Of a stretch of 64,000 bases of DNA, positions 3,773 to 60,262 are shown piece after piece (the first letter of the stretch is position 1; every line of letters starts with the position of its first letter). The position numbers were made by a program, and so were the translations under genes. Source of the DNA: Actinomycetota bacterium (GTDB lineage: Bacteria; Actinomycetota; Actinomycetes; S36-B12); the NCBI GenBank assembly GCA_947449035.1, contig CANFQC010000001.1, positions 65,659 through 129,658 of the forward strand. The letters are read 5' to 3'. The notes under the pieces were generated by a model that made no database searches, was not told the DNA's origin, and saw only the letters and a program-made list of their open reading frames with translations.

Positions 3773-3848
3773 TGGTGGGTCGCCCGGGGCTCGAACCCGG
3801 AACCTACGGATTAAAAGTCCGCAGCTCTAACCATTGAGCTAGCGACCC
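3773..3848 (-). tRNA. tRNA-Lys (anticodon TTT), CCA encoded
   Basis: Reverse complement reads GGGTCGCTAGCTCAATGGTTAGAGCTGCGGACTTTTAATCCGTAGGTTCCGGGTTCGAGCCCCGGGCGACCCACCA. Full cloverleaf; anticodon loop CTTTTAA. Confidence 0.95.
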
Positions 3849-20272: not shown

Positions 20273-20345
20273 GTCCCCATCGTCTAGTGGCCTAGGACAC
20301 CGCCCTTTCACGGCGGCAGCACGGGTTCGAATCCCGTTGGGGATA
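20273..20345 (+). tRNA. tRNA-Glu (anticodon TTC), no encoded CCA
   Basis: GTCCCCATCGTCTAGTGGCCTAGGACACCGCCCTTTCACGGCGGCAGCACGGGTTCGAATCCCGTTGGGGATA. Very close to E. coli tRNA-Glu; G1.U72 wobble. Confidence 0.9.
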
Positions 20346-20367
20346 CGCACGGCAGCACCATCAGTAA

Positions 20368-20444
20368 GGCCCCGTAGCGCAGTCGGTTAGCGCGCCGCCC
20401 TGTCACGGCGGAGGTCGCCGGTTCGAGCCCGGTCGGGGTCGCCA
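20368..20444 (+). tRNA. tRNA-Asp (anticodon GTC), CCA encoded
   Basis: Cloverleaf GGCCCCG..CCTGTCACGG..GGTTCGAGCCCGGTCGGGGTCGCCA. Confidence 0.95.
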
Positions 20445-20480
20445 TATCGAAGGTCAGCGAAAGCTGGCCTTCGATTGTTC

Positions 20481-20557
20481 GGCCAGGTAGCTCAGTTGGT
20501 ACGAGCGTCCGACTGAAAATCGGAAGGTCGGCGGTTCGACCCCGCCCCTGGCCACCA
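20481..20557 (+). tRNA. tRNA-Phe (anticodon GAA), CCA encoded
   Basis: GGCCAGGTAGCTCAGTTGGTACGAGCGTCCGACTGAAAATCGGAAGGTCGGCGGTTCGACCCCGCCCCTGGCCACCA. Confidence 0.95.
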
Positions 20558-24337: not shown

Positions 24338-25183
24338 TCACGAACGAGTAATCAACCCACGAGCCTCGAGATCCTTGAGGTACTTCTCCATGCCTCGATC
24401 GCCACGCCCTCGGAAGAGCGGCAAGGCCTTCGGGATCAGGCTTGGCACCAGCATCACCACACGCACAAGCCACGACTCGGAGGGCTTCGGGTAGTACTCG
24501 TACTTGGGCTTGTTGAGAAGCTTGCGAAAAGCCTTCACGACATCGGCCGGCGTCTGTGGCGGGTCCAGGAACTGAAGGGAATTTCCGCCGTCCAGCGCCT
24601 CCTGCCGAAGCATTGGAGTGTCGGTTGCTGACGGCAGAACGGATCCGACAGTAATTCCCTTGGGACCGAGGTCCATTCCGATCGCAAGCATCGCTCCGCG
24701 CAGACCAAACTTCGAAGCCGTGTAGATCGGCGTCTCGCCGAGGGGAAAGATTCCTCCCAGGGAAACTGTGGTGCAAATGCGCGGATCAGTGGACTTGCGG
24801 AGCAGCGGAATTGCCAGCCGGGAAAGGACCAGCGGTGCAAGCAGATTGACGCTCAACTCATGCTCGATACTCTCCACGCTTCGCTCATCAAAGCGATCAG
24901 CCGACGTCATCCCGGCGTTGTTCACGAGGACATCGAGGCGCCCGAACCTCTCATCAATGAAGGCCACCAGCCCTTCGACCTGAGAGCGGTCGGTCAGATT
25001 GATGCCGTAGCCAATGTGCCCAGTTCCCGACAGGGATGCAGCTACCGAATCTGCGCCCTCCCTGTTGAGATCGGCCACGATGACCACCGCGCCGTCAGCC
25101 GCGAGCGACTCCGCCAGCGCCGAGCCAATTCCACCGGCACCTCCAGTGACGAGAATGACCTTGTTCTGTGGGTCGTAGCTCAT
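24338..25183 (-). CDS. SDR-family oxidoreductase
   Basis: VTGGAGGIGSALA, NNAG, YTASKFG. ATG at 25183 forms an ATGA overlap with the stop of the permease-FMO ORF. Confidence 0.85.
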   Translation of the reverse strand: MSYDPQNKVILVTGGAGGIGSALAESLAADGAVVIVADLNREGADSVAASLSGTGHIGYGINLTDRSQVEGLVAFIDERFGRLDVLVNNAGMTSADRFDERSVESIEHELSVNLLAPLVLSRLAIPLLRKSTDPRICTTVSLGGIFPLGETPIYTASKFGLRGAMLAIGMDLGPKGITVGSVLPSATDTPMLRQEALDGGNSLQFLDPPQTPADVVKAFRKLLNKPKYEYYPKPSESWLVRVVMLVPSLIPKALPLFRGRGDRGMEKYLKDLEARGLITRS

Positions 25184-28002
25184 GAGTTCTCCTGGGGCTG
25201 GGCGGATGAGGTAGAGAGCGGACGCATCATCGAGCGATATGTCTCGGCATCGAGATCGGCCCACTCGAAGCGATCACGAAGAGATGCCAAGTAGTCGACG
25301 TAGGTGTCGACTTGCACGTAGGTGGCATGTCGGTCGGAGTCGACATACGTCATGCCACCACTGAGGTCAGGGAAGTCAGACGACTTCAATGATCGGAACT
25401 CATCATGGAATTGGCCAGTCTCACGGGCACGAATGTCGATCACGATCATCTGAGCCATCTCATCGAAACGCGTGTACGCAGCACCGGCGAATTCCGTGAA
25501 ACCAACCACGTACAGGCTGTCGTAATCACGTGAAAAGAGATTGAGATACAGCTTCGGCCGACCTCGGTGCCAGGTAATGAGTTTCTCGTCAAGGAAAGGC
25601 AGCAGATACTGATACCCCGTGGCCAGCAGTACCAAGTCAATCTCTTCGGAGCTCCCGTCCGCGAAGACCACAGATTTACCCTCAAGCCTGGCTACGTCGG
25701 GCTTCGCAATGAGGTCACCATGCTGGAGGTAGTGAATAACCTGTGTGTTCATGATCGGGTGGCTTTCCAGCAGGGCGTGATCTGGCGCGGGGAGTCCAAG
25801 GCGAGTGACGTCACCGACGTAGGCATCAATCATCGAGGTGGCATCCCCCGACAACGAGACCCCCTTCGGCGGCGGAATGACTCCGTAGAGAACTGCATCA
25901 GTCGGCAGCCCGAAGATGTGCTTGGGAACGAAGCGATAGCCGCGTCGAACTGAGAGGTAGGCCTGCGATGCGGACCTAGCGGCATCACAGGCGATATCGA
26001 CTCCCGAATTTCCCGCGCCGACAATGAGTACTCGCCGGTCAGCGAGTTCGGCCGGCTCCCGGTAACTCACCGAATGACGAATCTCTCCAGCGAATGACTC
26101 CGCGCCCGGAAGTTCGGGAATGCTCGGATGCCAGGTAACGCCTGGGCAACCGATGATCCCGTCGTAGTCGCGCACTTCGCCAGTGGACAAGGTGACCGAC
26201 CAACGGTCCTCCGGCAGCGGCACTGCGGCCGCCACACCTACTCCGAGAGTCACATGTTCATACAGTCCGAAATCACGCGCGAAGGCCCGGATGTAGTCGC
26301 GGATTTGATCCCATGACGGATAGTCCGGGTAGTGCGAGGGCATGGGGTAGCCGACAAAGCCGGAGGTGTACTTGGAGCTGATGAAGTGCGCACTTGTGTA
26401 CATCGGGGAGTCTGGATTGTCCATGTTCCAGATGCCACCCACGTCGTCCTGCTTCTCGAACCAATCGAAGGGGACGCCTTCAGCTATGAGCGCACGCGCC
26501 ATGATGAGGCCGGCAGGGCCAGCACCAACAAGGCAGTAGCGACGCGAGTACGCGACTGCGATGGCGTCGGAACGGCGTCGACGACTTCGTACCTGCGCTC
26601 GGGCGATCGCGGCGTATGTCGTGGGCTTTCGGCGACGAATCACTAAAGCCACCACCACACCCGCAATCGCAGCGACGAAAAGCGCCAAGGGGACCGAGTT
26701 CACCATCGCGCTCGAGGAACCAGTAAGGGTCGGGTAATTGATGAAGGCCAGAACGAAGGCTGCCGTGAGACCGATGAATCCGATCGCTGGCGCCACGGTC
26801 TCACGCCACCAATGACGGGATCGACGACCCGCGAAGAATGCAACGACGGAAAGCGAGGCACCGGCCTGAAGCGCGATGATTCCGAGGGTGCCGACTCCGA
26901 GGAGCGCAGGAACAAGGGTCGTGAACGGATCAGCTCCGATGAGCCCGAAGATGCTGATGACCACCAACGCCAGCACCGAAACAAGCACGCTTGCCACGTG
27001 CGGACTGAAGTGCTGGGGGTGATAGTGCCCAAGGCGCTCAGGCAGGACACGCTCGCGACCCAGAGCAAAGAGGTACCGACTGGTTGCGTTGTGAATCGCC
27101 AGGTAACCCGCAAGCACGCTGGTGCACAGCAGCACTGCTGAGATGTCGTACAAGACTTCTCCGCCGTACTGCTTGATGAGATCGAAGACGAATTCACCCT
27201 GAGCCTCGGTGGCCTGCGGAGCAATCGATGCGACTCCTGCGGCCCCGACGATGATCCAACTGGTCAGGATGTAGAAACCACCGATCGAGGCTACGGCGAT
27301 GTAGGTGGCTCGTGGGATCGAGCGCTCCGGATCCTTCGTCTCCTCCCCGTAAAGTGCTGCGGACTCGAAGCCGATGAAGCTAGACATCGCGAACATCAAG
27401 GCGATTCCCAGCGAGCCGCTGAAGGCGTAGGTGGGCGTGAAGGAATCGAGTGGGAAAGCTTCTGCACCCTTGTCGCCGACGATGATGACATCGAAAACGA
27501 TGAGCACGACGAATTCGAGCACCATGAGTGTGCCGAGAACTTTCGCGGATAGGTCAACCGATCGGTAGCCAAGAACCGCAACGATTCCGATAGCTACAAG
27601 CGCCGGGATCCACCAGGCAATAGTGATTCCGAGTCCGTCGAGTACAAGTGCCGTGTAGTAGCCAAAGGCGCCTGCAAGCCCGAATGAGAGACCTCCGTAG
27701 GCGAGTACCGCGACGTATGCCGCTGCCACTCCTGTTGGCTTCCCGAGAGCGCGAGCGATATACGTATAGAAGGCGCCGGTGTTGACGACTCGACGACTCA
27801 TCGCGGCATAGCCCACCGAGAAGCACAGCAGAATCAGAGTTGCGGCCACGAAGGCGAATGGAATTCCCGCCCCATTTCCGAAGATGACCGCAAGCGGGAC
27901 GTTTCCGACCATCGCAGCCATCGGAGCTGCAGCCGCAATGACGAGGAAGACCACCCGACGGGTGCTCAGGGCGGTGCGCGTTCCACCGGTTTCCTGTGCC
28001 AT
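25180..28002 (-). CDS. fusion protein: N-terminal APC-family amino-acid/amine permease (aa 1-457) plus C-terminal class-B flavin-containing monooxygenase (aa 489-940)
   Basis: One uninterrupted 941-codon frame from ATG 28002 (GGAG 6 nt upstream). APC motifs NTGAFYTYIARALG, FIGFESAA. Arg-rich linker. FMO part has CLVGAGPAGL (FAD), FAGEIRHSVSY (FMO motif), VLIVGAGNSGVD (NADPH), LATGY. Confidence 0.85.
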   Translation of the reverse strand: MAQETGGTRTALSTRRVVFLVIAAAAPMAAMVGNVPLAVIFGNGAGIPFAFVAATLILLCFSVGYAAMSRRVVNTGAFYTYIARALGKPTGVAAAYVAVLAYGGLSFGLAGAFGYYTALVLDGLGITIAWWIPALVAIGIVAVLGYRSVDLSAKVLGTLMVLEFVVLIVFDVIIVGDKGAEAFPLDSFTPTYAFSGSLGIALMFAMSSFIGFESAALYGEETKDPERSIPRATYIAVASIGGFYILTSWIIVGAAGVASIAPQATEAQGEFVFDLIKQYGGEVLYDISAVLLCTSVLAGYLAIHNATSRYLFALGRERVLPERLGHYHPQHFSPHVASVLVSVLALVVISIFGLIGADPFTTLVPALLGVGTLGIIALQAGASLSVVAFFAGRRSRHWWRETVAPAIGFIGLTAAFVLAFINYPTLTGSSSAMVNSVPLALFVAAIAGVVVALVIRRRKPTTYAAIARAQVRSRRRRSDAIAVAYSRRYCLVGAGPAGLIMARALIAEGVPFDWFEKQDDVGGIWNMDNPDSPMYTSAHFISSKYTSGFVGYPMPSHYPDYPSWDQIRDYIRAFARDFGLYEHVTLGVGVAAAVPLPEDRWSVTLSTGEVRDYDGIIGCPGVTWHPSIPELPGAESFAGEIRHSVSYREPAELADRRVLIVGAGNSGVDIACDAARSASQAYLSVRRGYRFVPKHIFGLPTDAVLYGVIPPPKGVSLSGDATSMIDAYVGDVTRLGLPAPDHALLESHPIMNTQVIHYLQHGDLIAKPDVARLEGKSVVFADGSSEEIDLVLLATGYQYLLPFLDEKLITWHRGRPKLYLNLFSRDYDSLYVVGFTEFAGAAYTRFDEMAQMIVIDIRARETGQFHDEFRSLKSSDFPDLSGGMTYVDSDRHATYVQVDTYVDYLASLRDRFEWADLDAETYRSMMRPLSTSSAQPQENS

Positions 28003-28066
28003 GAATTCTCCTGCTCTCACTATGGGAGACGCCATGCGGCGTGACCCGTGCCTTGGATCCTGCTGC

Positions 28067-28114
28067 ACGCTGGGGATCTGGTCCAGCGTCATGGGAAAAA
28101 GGTTGCAATTTCCC
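28067..28114. repeat. two adjacent inverted repeats in the divergent promoter region of the permease-FMO / SRPBCC operons
   Basis: ACGCTGG-N9-CCAGCGT (28067-28089) and GGGAAA-N10-TTTCCC (28093-28114), read directly. Confidence 0.3.
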
Positions 28115-28143
28115 TCTGTCCTCATTCGGGTTACCGTGGGCGC

Positions 28144-28632
28144 ATGCCCGCAGAGAAGCCTCGCGCTGAAATCGTCCCCACGAACCACGAGTGGCGGCGA
28201 GCCGGGCGCATCGTGATCAATGCGCCCATCGCCGTGATCTTCGATCTGCTTGCCGATCCCCGCCGACACGCGGATTTTGACGGCTCAGGAACTGTCCAGC
28301 GGCAGATCAAGGGGCCGCTGCGCCTGTCGAAGGGCGCCACGTTTGGCATGGCAATGCGGGTCAAGCTTCCGTACACGATCACGAACACGGTCGAGGAGTT
28401 CGAGGAGCCCTCACGTATCGCCTGGCGACACCTGGGTCGTCATCGCTGGCGTTACGAGCTCGAGGCCGTCGACACAGCCACGACTGTCGTGACCGAGACC
28501 TTTGATGGAAGCACGGCTCTCTTCCCCCCAGCCCTGAAACTCATCAACGCGTATGACAACAACCAGAAGGCCATCCTGAAGTCACTCGTGCAGCTCAAGA
28601 TCATCGCCGAGGAGCTGGCGGCATCCATCTGA
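28144..28632 (+). CDS. SRPBCC-family (polyketide cyclase/START-like) ligand-binding protein
   Basis: IVINAPIAVIFDLLADPRRHADFDGSG..ITNTVEEFEEPSRIAWRH is typical of SRPBCC proteins. ATG at 28144. Confidence 0.65.
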   Translation: MPAEKPRAEIVPTNHEWRRAGRIVINAPIAVIFDLLADPRRHADFDGSGTVQRQIKGPLRLSKGATFGMAMRVKLPYTITNTVEEFEEPSRIAWRHLGRHRWRYELEAVDTATTVVTETFDGSTALFPPALKLINAYDNNQKAILKSLVQLKIIAEELAASI

Positions 28633-28779: not shown

Positions 28780-28923
28780 ATGATGTCCGAGGAACTTGTC
28801 TGCCCGGTGTGTCATACCGACGACTTCGAGGTAACCCGCAACGCCACTCATGGTTTCGTAGTGCTGTGCAATGAGTGCGGGTTCGCGCGCGGCGCGACTC
28901 TGCAGCACCTGCTCGCCGGCTGA
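28780..28923 (+). CDS. 47-aa zinc-ribbon protein
   Basis: ATG at 28780 with a GGAG SD. CPVC-X19-CNEC four-Cys knuckle pair. Confidence 0.5.
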   Translation: MMSEELVCPVCHTDDFEVTRNATHGFVVLCNECGFARGATLQHLLAG

Positions 28924-29002
28924 CGCTTCCCCTGTCAGCCTGACTGACGCCACGCCTGCAGCCCGGTCGAGCAATCGACCGGTCGCATGCGAGGCTTAAG
29001 CG

Positions 29003-30367
29003 GTGCATCGACGGCAGTTTCTCTCCCTTTCCGCGGCGGCGACCGCCTCGCTTGCTGTTGTCGGTACGTCCACCTCGCAGGCCAGGGCCATGTCGATCCC
29101 GCGCCCCACGGGTTTCATGGCGACCCGCTGGGGCTCAAACCCCTGGGCCCGTGGCTCGTATTCCGCTCTCAGTACTCGGTGCAATCCAAATGCTCGCGAG
29201 ACTCTGGGTGAGGCTCTCGTCGGCGGTCGCGTAGTGCTAGCCGGCGAATACACGAGCATCGACTTTCCTTCCACGACCACTGGCGCGTACCAGTCCGGAG
29301 TCCGTGCGGCACGGCAGTTGATCTCCGAAGTCGAGCCGAGTCGGGTCATCGTGATCGGCGCCGGCATTGCTGGCGCTGCGGCAGCCAAGACTTTGGCGAA
29401 CACCGGCATCGCAGTTCAGGTGCTCGAAGCCAGCGATCGCATCGGCGGTCGCATCAGGTCGTCCACCGAATGGGGTGCTCCCGTTGAGCTCGGGGCGGCG
29501 TGGGTGCACTCCACCAAGGGCAACCCCGTCACCGGCCTGGCAGCCTCCGCCGGGCTCACACTCGTGCCCACCGACTACGGGGACGAAGTCATTCGCGACA
29601 CGGTCACCGGGCGAGAGAGCAGTCAGGCTGAATCCGTTGATGGACGACTCTCGGATCTCACCGATGAACTTGCCGACGACGAAAACTCGCCGACTCTCTC
29701 CGTATCCTCGTGGCTCGCCCGACATGGGTGGAGCCCCAATCGATTCGGACGCTGGGCTCAGGCAGTCGACATCACTCAGGAATATGGGCTGGACCCCTCC
29801 ACGCTGAGTGTCGCTGCACTGCAGGAGGGCGGGGAAGGCGCCGGCGGCGATGCATTCGTCAAGGGTGGTTACGCCGCAATTCCCCGCTACCTCCTCGACG
29901 GTCTTGACGTTCGACTCAATGAACCGGTGTCACGCGTAGAGCCCAACACCTCATCGGTACGAGTACGAACATCACGCGAGTCGCTGACCGCAGATGCAGT
30001 CGTGATCGCCGTTCCACTCCCCTTGCTGCAGGCCGGAATGCCGGGAGTCACGGGAATGACGAAGGGTGTTGCGCGCGCGGTGCGAGGCTTGACGACCGGC
30101 AACCTCGAGAAGGTGATCCTGAAATACGACGAGCAGTGGTGGGGCGATTCGCAGGTGCTCGGCATCGTGGGCGGCGGTGTGCCCGGTGCACCCGATGGCT
30201 CACCGGCCGCCCTGCGCTGGACAGAGTTCTATTCGCTTACGCCACTCGTCGGCTTCCCCGCACTCGTTGGATTCTCCGGCGGACTTGCTGCTCGCACTCG
30301 ACCCGCCACAGATGCAAGTTGCGCTTCGGAGGCGCAAGCCCGTCTCGCTGCTGCATTCCGGCGTTAG
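29003..30367 (+). CDS. Tat-exported flavin amine oxidase (polyamine/monoamine-oxidase family) with circularly permuted sequence order
   Basis: Twin-arginine signal MHRRQFLSLSAAA..SQARA. Aa 31-110 carry the normally C-terminal motif TRWGSNPWARGSYS..VVLAGEYTS..TGAYQSGVRAA. Aa 114 onward carry the normally N-terminal VIVIGAGIAGAAAAKTL..VLEASDRIGGR. Confidence 0.8.
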   Translation: MHRRQFLSLSAAATASLAVVGTSTSQARAMSIPRPTGFMATRWGSNPWARGSYSALSTRCNPNARETLGEALVGGRVVLAGEYTSIDFPSTTTGAYQSGVRAARQLISEVEPSRVIVIGAGIAGAAAAKTLANTGIAVQVLEASDRIGGRIRSSTEWGAPVELGAAWVHSTKGNPVTGLAASAGLTLVPTDYGDEVIRDTVTGRESSQAESVDGRLSDLTDELADDENSPTLSVSSWLARHGWSPNRFGRWAQAVDITQEYGLDPSTLSVAALQEGGEGAGGDAFVKGGYAAIPRYLLDGLDVRLNEPVSRVEPNTSSVRVRTSRESLTADAVVIAVPLPLLQAGMPGVTGMTKGVARAVRGLTTGNLEKVILKYDEQWWGDSQVLGIVGGGVPGAPDGSPAALRWTEFYSLTPLVGFPALVGFSGGLAARTRPATDASCASEAQARLAAAFRR

Positions 30368-30379
30368 GCGTTCCACGAC

Positions 30380-31303
30380 ATGCCACGTCCACTCAGCGCG
30401 ATCCTTGGCCTCATCCTTGTGAGCACAGGACTTCTAGGCATCGCGAACCACGCCGCTGCGGCTTCGGCACTCGATTTGTCAGCTGTTGAACTCAACGTGC
30501 AGCGGGTAAATGCAGCAGGAACGACAATCGCCTGGGCCGAACTCGGCACGGGCTCACCGCTCCTATTGCTCAATGGCACCGCGTCCCCGATGAGCGAATG
30601 GGATCCCGCATTCCTCGCCGGCCTCGCAAATGCGAATCGGGTGATCGTGTTCGACTATCCCGGTCTCGGTGACTCGGGGGCCGCTCCCGGCTCATGGACT
30701 TTCGAACACGCAGCCGACTGGATAGCTGACTTCGCGGCGCGAGTCACCCCAGGCGAGCGTGTCAATGTGCTCGGTTGGTCAATGGGTGGGTTCATCGCAC
30801 AACAACTGGCTATTCGCCACCCTGCACTCATTCGCAATCTGGTGCTCGCGGCGACGAACCCCGGCGGTACCAAGACTGCACTCGGTCCTGCTTGGGTTCA
30901 GGAGATCGACAGCTCGTCATCTTCGGACGCCGACTACTTGCGCACGAATTACCCGCCGTCCGGACGAGCTGCAGGAAAGAGATTCCTGGACCGCCTTTCT
31001 GATGCCTATGACAGCGGCGCTTATCCAGTGACTGAGACCCCCGACCGAACCCTGAAGGCGATGGTTGCGGCAGAGGATCCTTGGCTGAGAAGTAATGACA
31101 ATCTTCGCCAGCTCGGAGGCATCGGCGCACCGACTCTTGTCCTTGATGGCGCGAACGACCTGATCACTCCGAAATCCAACAGCGCGGTGATCGCATCGCG
31201 GATACCAAAAGCGAGACTGCAAATCTTCCCCGGAAGCGGACATTCGTTCCTCTTTCAGAGACCTGAGATCGTGACGGGTGTCGTGAACCGTTTTCTCCGT
31301 TGA
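30380..31303 (+). CDS. secreted alpha/beta-hydrolase
   Basis: Signal peptide, nucleophile elbow GWSMGG, C-terminal GSGHSF. Confidence 0.75.
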   Translation: MPRPLSAILGLILVSTGLLGIANHAAAASALDLSAVELNVQRVNAAGTTIAWAELGTGSPLLLLNGTASPMSEWDPAFLAGLANANRVIVFDYPGLGDSGAAPGSWTFEHAADWIADFAARVTPGERVNVLGWSMGGFIAQQLAIRHPALIRNLVLAATNPGGTKTALGPAWVQEIDSSSSSDADYLRTNYPPSGRAAGKRFLDRLSDAYDSGAYPVTETPDRTLKAMVAAEDPWLRSNDNLRQLGGIGAPTLVLDGANDLITPKSNSAVIASRIPKARLQIFPGSGHSFLFQRPEIVTGVVNRFLR

Positions 31304-31376: not shown

Positions 31377-31946
31377 GTGGAACTGACGCGTATTGGCACC
31401 GAAGGTGCACCTGGAAGGGTGCTCAGAAGCGCCTGGTGGGCCTGGTGGGCATGCGCGATCTCCTGGTTGATCGCCTGCCTGCGGCTTGGCGCCTGGTTCT
31501 TCTCGAATCTGAAGTCGGGCGACGGCAATGACGATCCGATCGGGGCTTTCGGCACCGTGTACGACGCCGGCTACCTGGCCGTCTCCGCCTCCACCTTCGT
31601 AGCACTGGCCTTCGTCGTGCTACTGGCATTTCAGACGAGACGCGGCGGCAAGTTAGCCGTCGCGGTGATCTTGCTCATCATCGGCGGAGTGCTGTTCGCC
31701 TACTTCCGCGAATTCGCTGCATGGATGGTCGCCGCTAAGGGCCTCTTCGCCTTCACCCCGCGCATGGTGAAAATGGACGCCGTCTACACGGTCCTGACAA
31801 TTCTCACGCTGTTCTTCGCCACCCCGAGCTATTTCGGTCAGGCGCTAGTTGCCACCGCACTTGTGCTGACTGCGGTCTTCCTCGTCGTTGCGGCGCGAAG
31901 GTGGCGCGGAGTCACTCGGCTCGTTGAGGCTGACAGACTGCTCTGA
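31377..31946 (+). CDS. hypothetical membrane protein (5 TM)
   Basis: Hydrophobic ORF with no recognisable family; start uncertain. Confidence 0.4.
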   Translation: MELTRIGTEGAPGRVLRSAWWAWWACAISWLIACLRLGAWFFSNLKSGDGNDDPIGAFGTVYDAGYLAVSASTFVALAFVVLLAFQTRRGGKLAVAVILLIIGGVLFAYFREFAAWMVAAKGLFAFTPRMVKMDAVYTVLTILTLFFATPSYFGQALVATALVLTAVFLVVAARRWRGVTRLVEADRLL

Positions 31947-60189: not shown

Positions 60190-60262
60190 GCCCCCGTAGC
60201 TCAAGGGATAGAGCACATCCCTAACGAAGATGCGGTTGTCGGTTCGAATCCGACCAGGGGCA
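60190..60262 (+). tRNA. atypical tRNA or tRNA pseudogene: Arg-type body, canonical fold gives anticodon AAC (Val); no encoded CCA
   Basis: GCCCCCGTAGCTCAAGGGATAGAGCACATCCCTAACGAAGATGCGGTTGTCGGTTCGAATCCGACCAGGGGCA. Good D and T arms. C6.A67 and C31.A39 mismatches. Anticodon loop CTAACGA, or a 9-nt loop CCTAACGAA on a 4-bp stem. Confidence 0.6.

Follow-up and report, generated by a model that had tools for sequence, protein, structure and literature searches.

A naturally circularly permuted flavin amine oxidase with a predicted twin-arginine leader in Actinobacteria

The oxidase gene and its swapped chain order

A stretch of 64,000 nucleotides from contig CANFQC010000001.1 of an Actinomycetota genome assembly (GCA_947449035.1), here called the window, was analysed around a gene for a flavin amine oxidase. 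The open reading frame (ORF) occupies 29003..30367 on the + strand, begins with GTG and comprises 454 codons, i.e. 454 amino acids (aa). Direct reading of the sequence places a Shine-Dalgarno-like GAGG (28991..28994, +) 8 nt 5' of the start codon, and the GC content is even over the gene region. An earlier interpretation made from the letters alone (the sequence-only reading) had described the product as a flavin amine oxidase that is circularly permuted and bears a twin-arginine translocation (Tat) signal. This description is borne out by swapped segments, a chain order shared among homologues, signs of purifying selection and invariant residues for catalysis and for binding of flavin adenine dinucleotide (FAD).

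The protein consists of a leader and two segments joined by a linker. The predicted Tat signal peptide (aa 1-29; 29003..29089, +) reads MHRRQFLSLSAAATASLAVVGTSTSQARA. It starts with M-H-R-R-Q-F-L-S, continues with an h-region rich in Ala, Ser and Thr and ends in the c-region TSQ-A-R-A, where cleavage is predicted between A-R-A and M-S. Segment A (aa 30-107; 29090..29323, +) is the relocated 'C-terminal' FAD-binding segment, with the pattern IPRPTGFMATRW..GSYS..VVLAGEYTS..GAYQSGVRAARQLI. A linker of about six residues, SEVEPS (aa 108-113; 29324..29341, +), leads from the old C-terminus to the old N-terminus. Segment B (aa 114-454; 29342..30364, +) then provides the Rossmann beta-alpha-beta unit, the substrate domain and the new C-terminus ..EAQARLAAAFRR. 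Within segment B lie the dinucleotide-binding motif GAGIAG (aa 119-124, nt 29357-29374), E142, GGR at positions 148-150, a W167-x-H169 motif of the polyamine oxidase (PAO) type and the catalytic K370 (nt 30110-30112). The stop codon (30365..30367, +) coincides with the permutation breakpoint.

In every solved homologue the relocated segment is found at the C-terminal position. When the protein was compared with PDB chains using phmmer, residues 29-106 matched residues 697-773 of LSD2 (4gu0_A; i-Evalue 4e-11), residues 105-187 matched LSD2 328-412 (8e-10) and residues 280-452 matched LSD2 523-695 (3.5e-10). The N-terminal stretch of about 80 residues thus corresponds to the canonical C-terminal segment, as the sequence-only reading had proposed. 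Its proposal that the protein ends where the TRW segment would normally start also agrees with these matches, because at the LSD2-equivalent junction 695/697 the protein end corresponds to 695 and the mature N-terminus to 697. The Rossmann fold does follow the relocated segment; its first strand, VIVIGAG, begins at aa 115 and not at aa 114 as stated before, which is a trivial correction. Judged by these matches, the oxidase is a natural circular permutant in which no residues have been lost or duplicated. The canonical order, with the Rossmann start first and TRW..AGE..GAY.SG last, is reversed. The Pfam family Amino_oxidase (PF01593) recognises the protein with 182.9 bits (cut-off 19.8, E 1.8e-53), split into two stretches, of which the one in segment B covers residues 122-414; NAD_binding_8 matches residues 117-176 with 54 bits.

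A search of 1.84 billion 50%-identity representatives yielded 19,393 matches. The best 150 of these were classified by locating segments A and B separately with BLAST, and they comprise 60 permuted proteins, 87 canonical proteins and 3 fragments. To define the breakpoint, 64 permuted sequences were re-ordered and aligned with 85 canonical ones. The canonical relatives have a contiguous stretch, E-A-M-x-x-L-R-x-x-[YF]-G-x-x-[VI]-P-x-P-(5)-T-R-W, in which the spacing from E to W is 24 in 67/85 sequences and 23 in 16/85. In the permuted proteins, the C-terminal tail after this E (E443 in the query) measures 9-12 aa in 53/64 cases (10-12 aa in 48/64), and the mature N-termini start about 13 residues ahead of the W. 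Tail and lead together give the canonical spacing of 24. At the other junction, the distance from the GAY.SG glycine to GxGxxG (G99 to G119 in the query) is 20-21 aa in 44 of the 64 permuted proteins, which matches a canonical C-terminal tail plus a short lead into strand beta1. No signal-peptide remnant was found inside the linker in the 64 aligned permuted proteins. By this alignment, the cut falls in one and the same loop in all permuted proteins. The cut site would be a surface loop, flanked on one side by the final helix of the substrate domain (..EAxxxLxxx[YF]G) and on the other by the strand leading back into the FAD domain ([VI]PxP..TRW), and the former termini would be joined via the short linker just before the Rossmann strand beta1.

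An arrangement of this kind could also be mimicked by an artefact, i.e. two neighbouring oxidase genes merged into a chimera during assembly, a contig joined wrongly or a pseudogene in decay. A priori, one metagenomic contig could hold such an error; we found no support for it. The identical 454-aa protein is present, with identical neighbours, on 18 independently assembled contigs from several samples (ENA and three NCBI metagenome-assembled genomes, MAGs). A search at the level of 90% clusters retrieved 625 proteins at E ≤ 1e-10. The best 120 of the 625 are all co-linear with the query (51-97% identity, ~454-456 aa), and TRW (~residue 42) stands ahead of GxGxxG (~residue 120) in 120/120. In a scan of one genome per species, a relative was encoded in 260 genomes. 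All of the 80 loci examined among these are co-linear as well, and all come from uncultured Actinomycetota MAGs, with representatives of Nanopelagicales/acI, acSTL, Gaiellales, Thermoleophilia and Micrococcales. The permuted order is therefore common to the orthologues. A tblastn search with the oxidase protein detected no second or vestigial oxidase fragment in the 64-kb window; the sole other match was the Rossmann motif of an unrelated FMO (E 0.03). In comparisons with six orthologues, the ratio of non-synonymous to synonymous substitution rates (dN/dS) was 0.02-0.11 for segment A. For segment B it was 0.04-0.13 in the five closer pairs and 0.16 against the most distant orthologue (L006), all values being approximate because dS is saturated. 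By these ratios, which are well below 1, both segments are under purifying selection, and the GC content is uniform across the gene. Because of the independent assemblies, the shared order, the lack of a second fragment and the low dN/dS, we consider chimera and pseudogene excluded, and the probability left to an artefact of any kind is negligible. The possibility raised by the sequence-only reading that two adjacent oxidase genes had been joined falls with them.

Active site, relatives and leader

In an alignment of 54 homologues, W43, G51, Y53, S54, A80-G81-E82, G94 and G99 are invariant in segment A, as are G119-A-G..G124, E142, R146, G148-G-R150, W167, H169 and K370 in segment B. Against LSD2, K370 (GNLEKVIL) pairs with the lysine of GIIEKIAL and Y53 (GSYS) with a tyrosine. 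We take their equivalents to be the flavin-N5 lysine (LSD1 K661) and the flavin-facing tyrosine (LSD1 Y761), respectively. The W-x-H motif, GAAWVHSTKGNP, aligns best with spermine oxidase (SMOX) 7oxl (GATWIHGSHGNP) and acetylpolyamine oxidase (APAO) 5lae (GAHWIHG), so that within the PAO/LSD branch the family groups with PAO/SMOX. As the FAD-binding and catalytic elements are all retained, an ordinary two-domain fold and FAD binding are expected, and we infer from the conserved residues that the permutant is loaded with FAD. A compact AlphaFold2 model, built with the alignment of the 54 homologues, has a mean predicted local distance difference test (pLDDT) score of 89 and a predicted template-modelling (pTM) score of 0.87. 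Residues 1-28 are its only disordered part, and the pLDDT of segment A is 83-98. The secondary-structure elements follow the order strand, strand, long helix (segment A), then Rossmann beta1-alphaA-beta2. Foldseek ranked LSD2 first (E 1e-21, TMq 0.65, ~374 columns), followed by maize PAO, APAO and bacterial monoamine oxidase (MAO). Since the Foldseek alignment is sequential, its coverage is limited to segment B.

The best sequence and structure matches of the oxidase are thus PAO, SMOX and LSD. Like the members of the PAO/SMOX/APAO/KDM1 branch (PF01593), it has a predicted two-domain FAD fold, GxGxxG, the acidic residue that ends beta2 and GGR. With PAO, SMOX and LSD it further shares ..AGE.T.., GAY.SG, the lysine of G-x-x-E-K-[VI] and the tyrosine at Y53, and with PAO and SMOX the W-x-H. 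Identity to the PAO/LSD structures is about 24-26% in the Foldseek alignments. The differences concern the last ~80 residues, which the oxidase puts first, and the Tat leader; PAO, SMOX and LSD reside in peroxisomes, cytosol or nucleus or are secreted via the endoplasmic reticulum. Moreover, the oxidase is without the SWIRM and zinc-finger additions of LSD.

A second point of comparison is offered by NicA2, Pnao and their relatives, which belong to the same superfamily and carry an N-terminal twin-arginine leader, a feature that suggests folding with the cofactor before export. These proteins, however, follow the canonical order, and their leader immediately precedes the Rossmann strand beta1. 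They are placed on the MAO/NicA2 branch, in contrast to the oxidase on the PAO/LSD branch, and are weaker PDB matches to the query (E ~1e-14 to 1e-15). The nearest canonical bacterial relatives (e.g. P0161, P0170 and P0235; uncharacterised) have 35-40% identity and a similar length. They differ in their ordinary N-to-C order and in a leader that abuts beta1. In these relatives the stretch EAMxxLRxxYG-xx[VI]PxP..TRW is contiguous, and its two halves correspond to the C- and N-termini of the permutant.

The leader, with its motif H-R-R-Q-F-L-S, the h-region LSAAATASLAVVGTS and the site between A-R-A and M, fits the Tat consensus and an AxA cleavage site. In the 54 aligned homologues, neither R3 nor R4 varies, and conservation of F6 and L7 is ≥90%. 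Outside the twin-arginine (RR) motif, the leader varies freely across the family, as would be expected for a signal peptide. Among homologues with a full N-terminus, 91/94 have RRx## and 87/94 have RRxF[LIVM]. Independently of the gene calls, an RR motif was found upstream in frame at 73/80 loci, a count that includes one false match inside the mature protein (L042). As for the other seven loci, 3 are truncated by a contig edge or broken by a stop, no fewer than 3 reflect artefacts of the regular expression, and 1 (L073) is unexplained. The c-region usually carries a basic residue, a 'Sec-avoidance' feature. The predicted cleavage between A-R-A and M-S lies two residues ahead of the conserved IPxP that opens segment A. 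In deeper lineages, the leaders contain a lipobox-like cysteine, by which these proteins are probably Tat lipoproteins.

In several public gene calls the leader is lost from view. Versions of 416 or 425 aa (P0006, P0010, P0016-P0020) start at M39 or M30 and drop the Tat leader, while at the genome loci the in-frame DNA further upstream encodes the RR motif despite the shorter gene calls. Read against this DNA, the 416/425-aa versions are start-codon miscalls and constitute a systematic annotation error for the family.

The leader is not confined to permuted proteins. In 51/85 of the nearest canonical representatives an RR leader stands directly ahead of beta1, in some cases with a lipobox. The divergent permuted representatives have an RR leader in 37/56 cases; in 11 the leader is of another kind or truncated, and 8 are leaderless and start at the breakpoint (e.g. 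P0145, MTRVPDPSGILVTRW). Since RR leaders are equally common in the nearest canonical relatives, export appears to be independent of the permutation, and the leaderless permutants indicate that the fold does not need export. Hence, the Tat signal noted in the sequence-only reading is a conserved feature of the family (91/94 homologues; 73/80 loci), but it is not special to the permutant.

We also considered that the RR region might serve as a membrane anchor that is not cleaved, or form a cytoplasmic extension, so that the enzyme would stay inside the cell or tethered. The Pfam model TAT_signal gives 16.5 bits (E 0.008), under its cut-off of 22.7, which is why the Tat assignment rests on family conservation, and the eight leaderless permuted representatives beginning at the breakpoint would also suit an anchor or extension. 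Neither would account for the succession of invariant RR, F-L, Ala-rich h-region, basic c-region residue and AxA site, nor for a motif kept in 73/80 loci while the remaining leader varies. In addition, the lipobox cysteines of the deeper lineages are at the right distance, which argues for processing. We therefore regard an anchor or extension as improbable and favour a cleaved Tat signal. The Tat pathway would carry the folded, FAD-loaded enzyme outside the cytoplasmic membrane, and in a monoderm actinobacterium the destination would be the cell-wall zone or the medium.

Gene neighbourhood and electron acceptor

Downstream of the oxidase lies a gene for a signal-bearing S33-type alpha/beta-hydrolase of 307 aa (30380..31303, +; Pfam Abhydrolase_1, Abhydrolase_6 and Hydrolase_4). 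It starts 13 nt past the oxidase stop codon (12 intervening bases), is conserved beside the oxidase in L001, L004 and L006, and is a probable operon partner. About 16 Nanopelagicales loci (e.g. L029:4008-5960) feature a different protein of ~650 aa with Abhydrolase_1 and TAP-like domains, the gene for which ends ~40 nt upstream. Secreted S33-type hydrolases thus adjoin the permuted oxidase in two lineages, on opposite sides, and are the single theme that recurs in its neighbourhood. Exported hydrolase and oxidase may represent a functional pairing.

Further neighbours in the window are an SRPBCC/polyketide-cyclase-like protein upstream of the oxidase (28048..28632, +) and a predicted membrane protein of 189 aa without a Pfam match downstream of the hydrolase (31377..31946, +), both conserved only in the closest relatives. 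A 47-aa ORF (MMSEELVCPVCHTDDFEV..VLCNECGF..; 28780..28923, +) with a CxxC...CxxC zinc-ribbon pattern precedes the oxidase by 80 nt. Gene calls on all public contigs include it, and it is conserved at L001 (96%) and L003 (81%). Across the 80 loci, no gene neighbour is conserved in the whole family; the window neighbours recur only in the closest relatives, and de novo clustering revealed synteny that is lineage-specific only. Upstream of the small gene cluster that contains the oxidase, and divergent from it, a single ORF (25180..28269, -) encodes an APC-family permease (AA_permease_2, ~100-521) fused to an FMO-like monooxygenase (~575-936, 170 bits). Such a fusion is unusual; it is also called publicly, as a 940-aa protein on several contigs, and it does not stand beside the oxidase at the 80 loci. 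Three tRNA genes are clustered within 280 nt at 20273..20554 (+), and single tRNAs are found at 3776..3848 (-) and 60190..60262 (+).

Gene context bears on the electron acceptor. In a survey in which 2,911 superfamily sequences were analysed and 25 enzymes characterised (PMC12224317, Biochemistry 2025), a Tat signal combined with an adjacent Sec-exported cytochrome c marked dehydrogenases such as NicA2 and Pnao. Most Tat-bearing enzymes lacking a cytochrome c close by showed a fast reaction with O2 and were interpreted as exported oxidases (PMC12224317). We found no credible CxxCH cytochrome c ORF within 3 kb of the gene, either in the window or at the 80 loci. The CxxCH matches near the oxidase are spurious frames, a zinc alcohol dehydrogenase (Zn-ADH) and the leaderless 47-aa zinc-ribbon ORF, whose CPVCH is not a haem-c site because the protein has no leader. 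Under the rule of PMC12224317, here extrapolated to a different clade and phylum, the lack of a cytochrome c neighbour favours an oxidase that uses O2. It thereby lends indirect weight to the proposal of the sequence-only reading that the enzyme acts on extracellular amines and forms H2O2. Extracellular oxidation of a polyamine-like amine with O2 would then yield an aldehyde, an amine or ammonia, and H2O2. The role of the oxidase would be nitrogen scavenging by freshwater Actinobacteria. Predictions for acI Actinobacteria include the consumption of polyamines, peptides and other N-rich compounds (PMC5574706), so a polyamine-type substrate and nitrogen scavenging are our best guess.

A permuted, exported dehydrogenase that passes flavin electrons to an extracytoplasmic protein or quinone acceptor, as NicA2 and Pnao do, and forms little H2O2 has some precedent. 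NicA2, Pnao and >100 other Tat-bearing superfamily members use cytochrome c, and a Tat-only enzyme of Erythrobacter sp. 1414 reacts slowly with O2 and may use another, unknown oxidant (PMC12224317); an acceptor could also be encoded elsewhere in the genome. Many NicA2/Pnao relatives are dehydrogenases with an adjacent cycN-like gene, yet neither such a gene nor any exported CxxCH ORF was found beside the oxidase, within 3 kb in the window and at the 80 loci. Moreover, most of the Tat-only enzymes tested reacted fast with O2 (PMC12224317), and the nearest characterised relatives, SMOX, APAO, PAO and LSD, are oxidases. A dehydrogenase is therefore unlikely, and we favour an O2-using oxidase.

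Taken together, the best explanation is a functional permutant of the flavin amine oxidoreductase fold that is Tat-exported and probably acts as a polyamine-type O2 oxidase, to which we assign a probability of about 0.8. We infer the substrate class, the use of O2 and the export from homology, context and the leader. Several observations count against this explanation. The TAT_signal score remains below its cut-off, and no gene neighbour is conserved throughout the family. The rule that separates oxidases from dehydrogenases was built on NicA2-related proteins collected by BLAST with NicA2, and the Erythrobacter enzyme is an exception to it (PMC12224317). Finally, the fold check is a sequential Foldseek alignment of ~374 columns with a TMq of 0.65.

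Origin and meaning of the permutation

To trace the origin of the swapped order, a neighbour-joining (NJ) tree was computed from 149 de-permuted sequences. It contains two large permuted groups (21 and ~39 sequences) as well as singletons, interleaved with canonical proteins. Its shape is star-like, with backbone branches of 0.001-0.02 versus terminal branches of ~0.3. Because the backbone branches are tiny compared with the terminal ones, the tree cannot settle whether the permuted proteins form a single clade. In a topology-neutral alignment, 61% of the nearest outside relatives of the query group are permuted versus 34% expected, and the mean identity of the query group to the other permuted group is 1.4 points above that to canonical proteins (95% bootstrap interval 0.8-2.1). 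Breakpoint and linker lengths are identical in both permuted groups. On the strength of the common breakpoint and the excess identity between the groups, the permutation is probably of single origin.

It is less likely, though still worth weighing, that the permutation arose more than once in the same permissive loop, so that the two groups would descend from different canonical Tat-bearing ancestors. The interleaving of permuted and canonical proteins in the NJ tree points in this direction, as does the finding that no alignment column sets the two permuted groups jointly apart from the canonical proteins. Yet the tree is unresolved, and a column test of three groups without an outgroup cannot show grouping. 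The identical breakpoints and linker lengths, the 61% of permuted nearest relatives and the identity excess of 1.4 points instead speak for the single origin that we prefer.

As for the route, the sequence-only reading had invoked tandem duplication followed by truncation at both ends. This model is not supported by our data: no duplication intermediates of the type leader-A-B-A or B-A-B-A were found among the 150 best representatives, and it leaves the retention of the N-terminal leader unexplained. Since the leader stays N-terminal, duplication, fusion and truncation are insufficient on their own. A conceivable intermediate, P0228 (XP_034936671.1, Chelonus insularis, 1449 aa, three tandem oxidase units), was rejected, as it is an insect 'LOW QUALITY PROTEIN' and probably derives from merged tandem genes. 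Its three canonical polyamine-oxidase units are arranged head to tail and indicate that tandem arrays of the gene exist in animals. Three routes are possible. A leaderless protein may have been permuted and have received its leader later (leaderless permutants exist), or the 3' segment may have been duplicated behind the leader before the original copy was lost, or a tandem fusion may have been followed by several deletions.

Well-known natural permutants include swaposin versus saposin, permuted DNA methyltransferases, transaldolases and some glucanases. Like these, the oxidase is predicted to retain the fold of its relatives, has its termini moved to a surface loop, uses a short linker and shows an arrangement fixed family-wide. 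Unlike these, which have other folds, it is a discontinuous two-domain flavoenzyme that keeps an N-terminal export signal. In full-text literature searches aimed at novelty or ecological context, no account of a naturally permuted MAO/PAO/LSD fold was found, and the word stem 'permut' is absent from the superfamily survey PMC12224317. There is no dedicated NCBIfam model, and all NCBIfam matches are far under the cut-off. Public names are generic, such as 'polyamine oxidase', 'monoamine oxidase' or 'FAD-dependent oxidoreductase'. The oxidase is apparently an undescribed topological variant of a known enzyme family and not a new kind of system. The finding also exposes a blind spot of annotation, in which generic labels, a split Pfam domain and gene calls at M30/M39 that delete the export signal come together.

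A more far-reaching proposal would be that a single ancient permutation stands at the root of a large, unrecognised family in the Actinobacteria, made up of polyamine-type oxidases that are exported and in part lipid-anchored, and that their chain order is adaptive and not neutral. As a joint statement this is speculative, and we consider it unlikely to hold in full. According to this proposal, the segment that clamps FAD would lie next to the Rossmann beta-alpha-beta unit, so that the dinucleotide-binding elements would be made first and contiguously, and the Tat leader with its cleavage site would be kept at a distance from strand beta1, which is buried. In monoderm cells, cofactor capture and Tat proofreading or processing could benefit from both changes. 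If the proposal is true, the enzymes would be significant for the remineralisation of extracellular amine nitrogen and for H2O2 production in lakes.

The MAO/PAO/LSD fold is among the most studied flavoenzyme folds and includes the drug targets MAO-A, MAO-B and LSD1. The permutant indicates that new termini can be accommodated at one defined loop of its discontinuous two-domain architecture. It represents a ready design for engineered permutants, fusions and biosensors, and a natural test case for the effect of chain order on FAD loading, folding and Tat export. The finding is of real interest in protein evolution and engineering as well as in the microbial ecology of fresh water. As an abundant, presumably exported amine oxidase of uncultured freshwater Actinobacteria, the enzyme would bear on the turnover of dissolved organic nitrogen and on the biological sources of H2O2.

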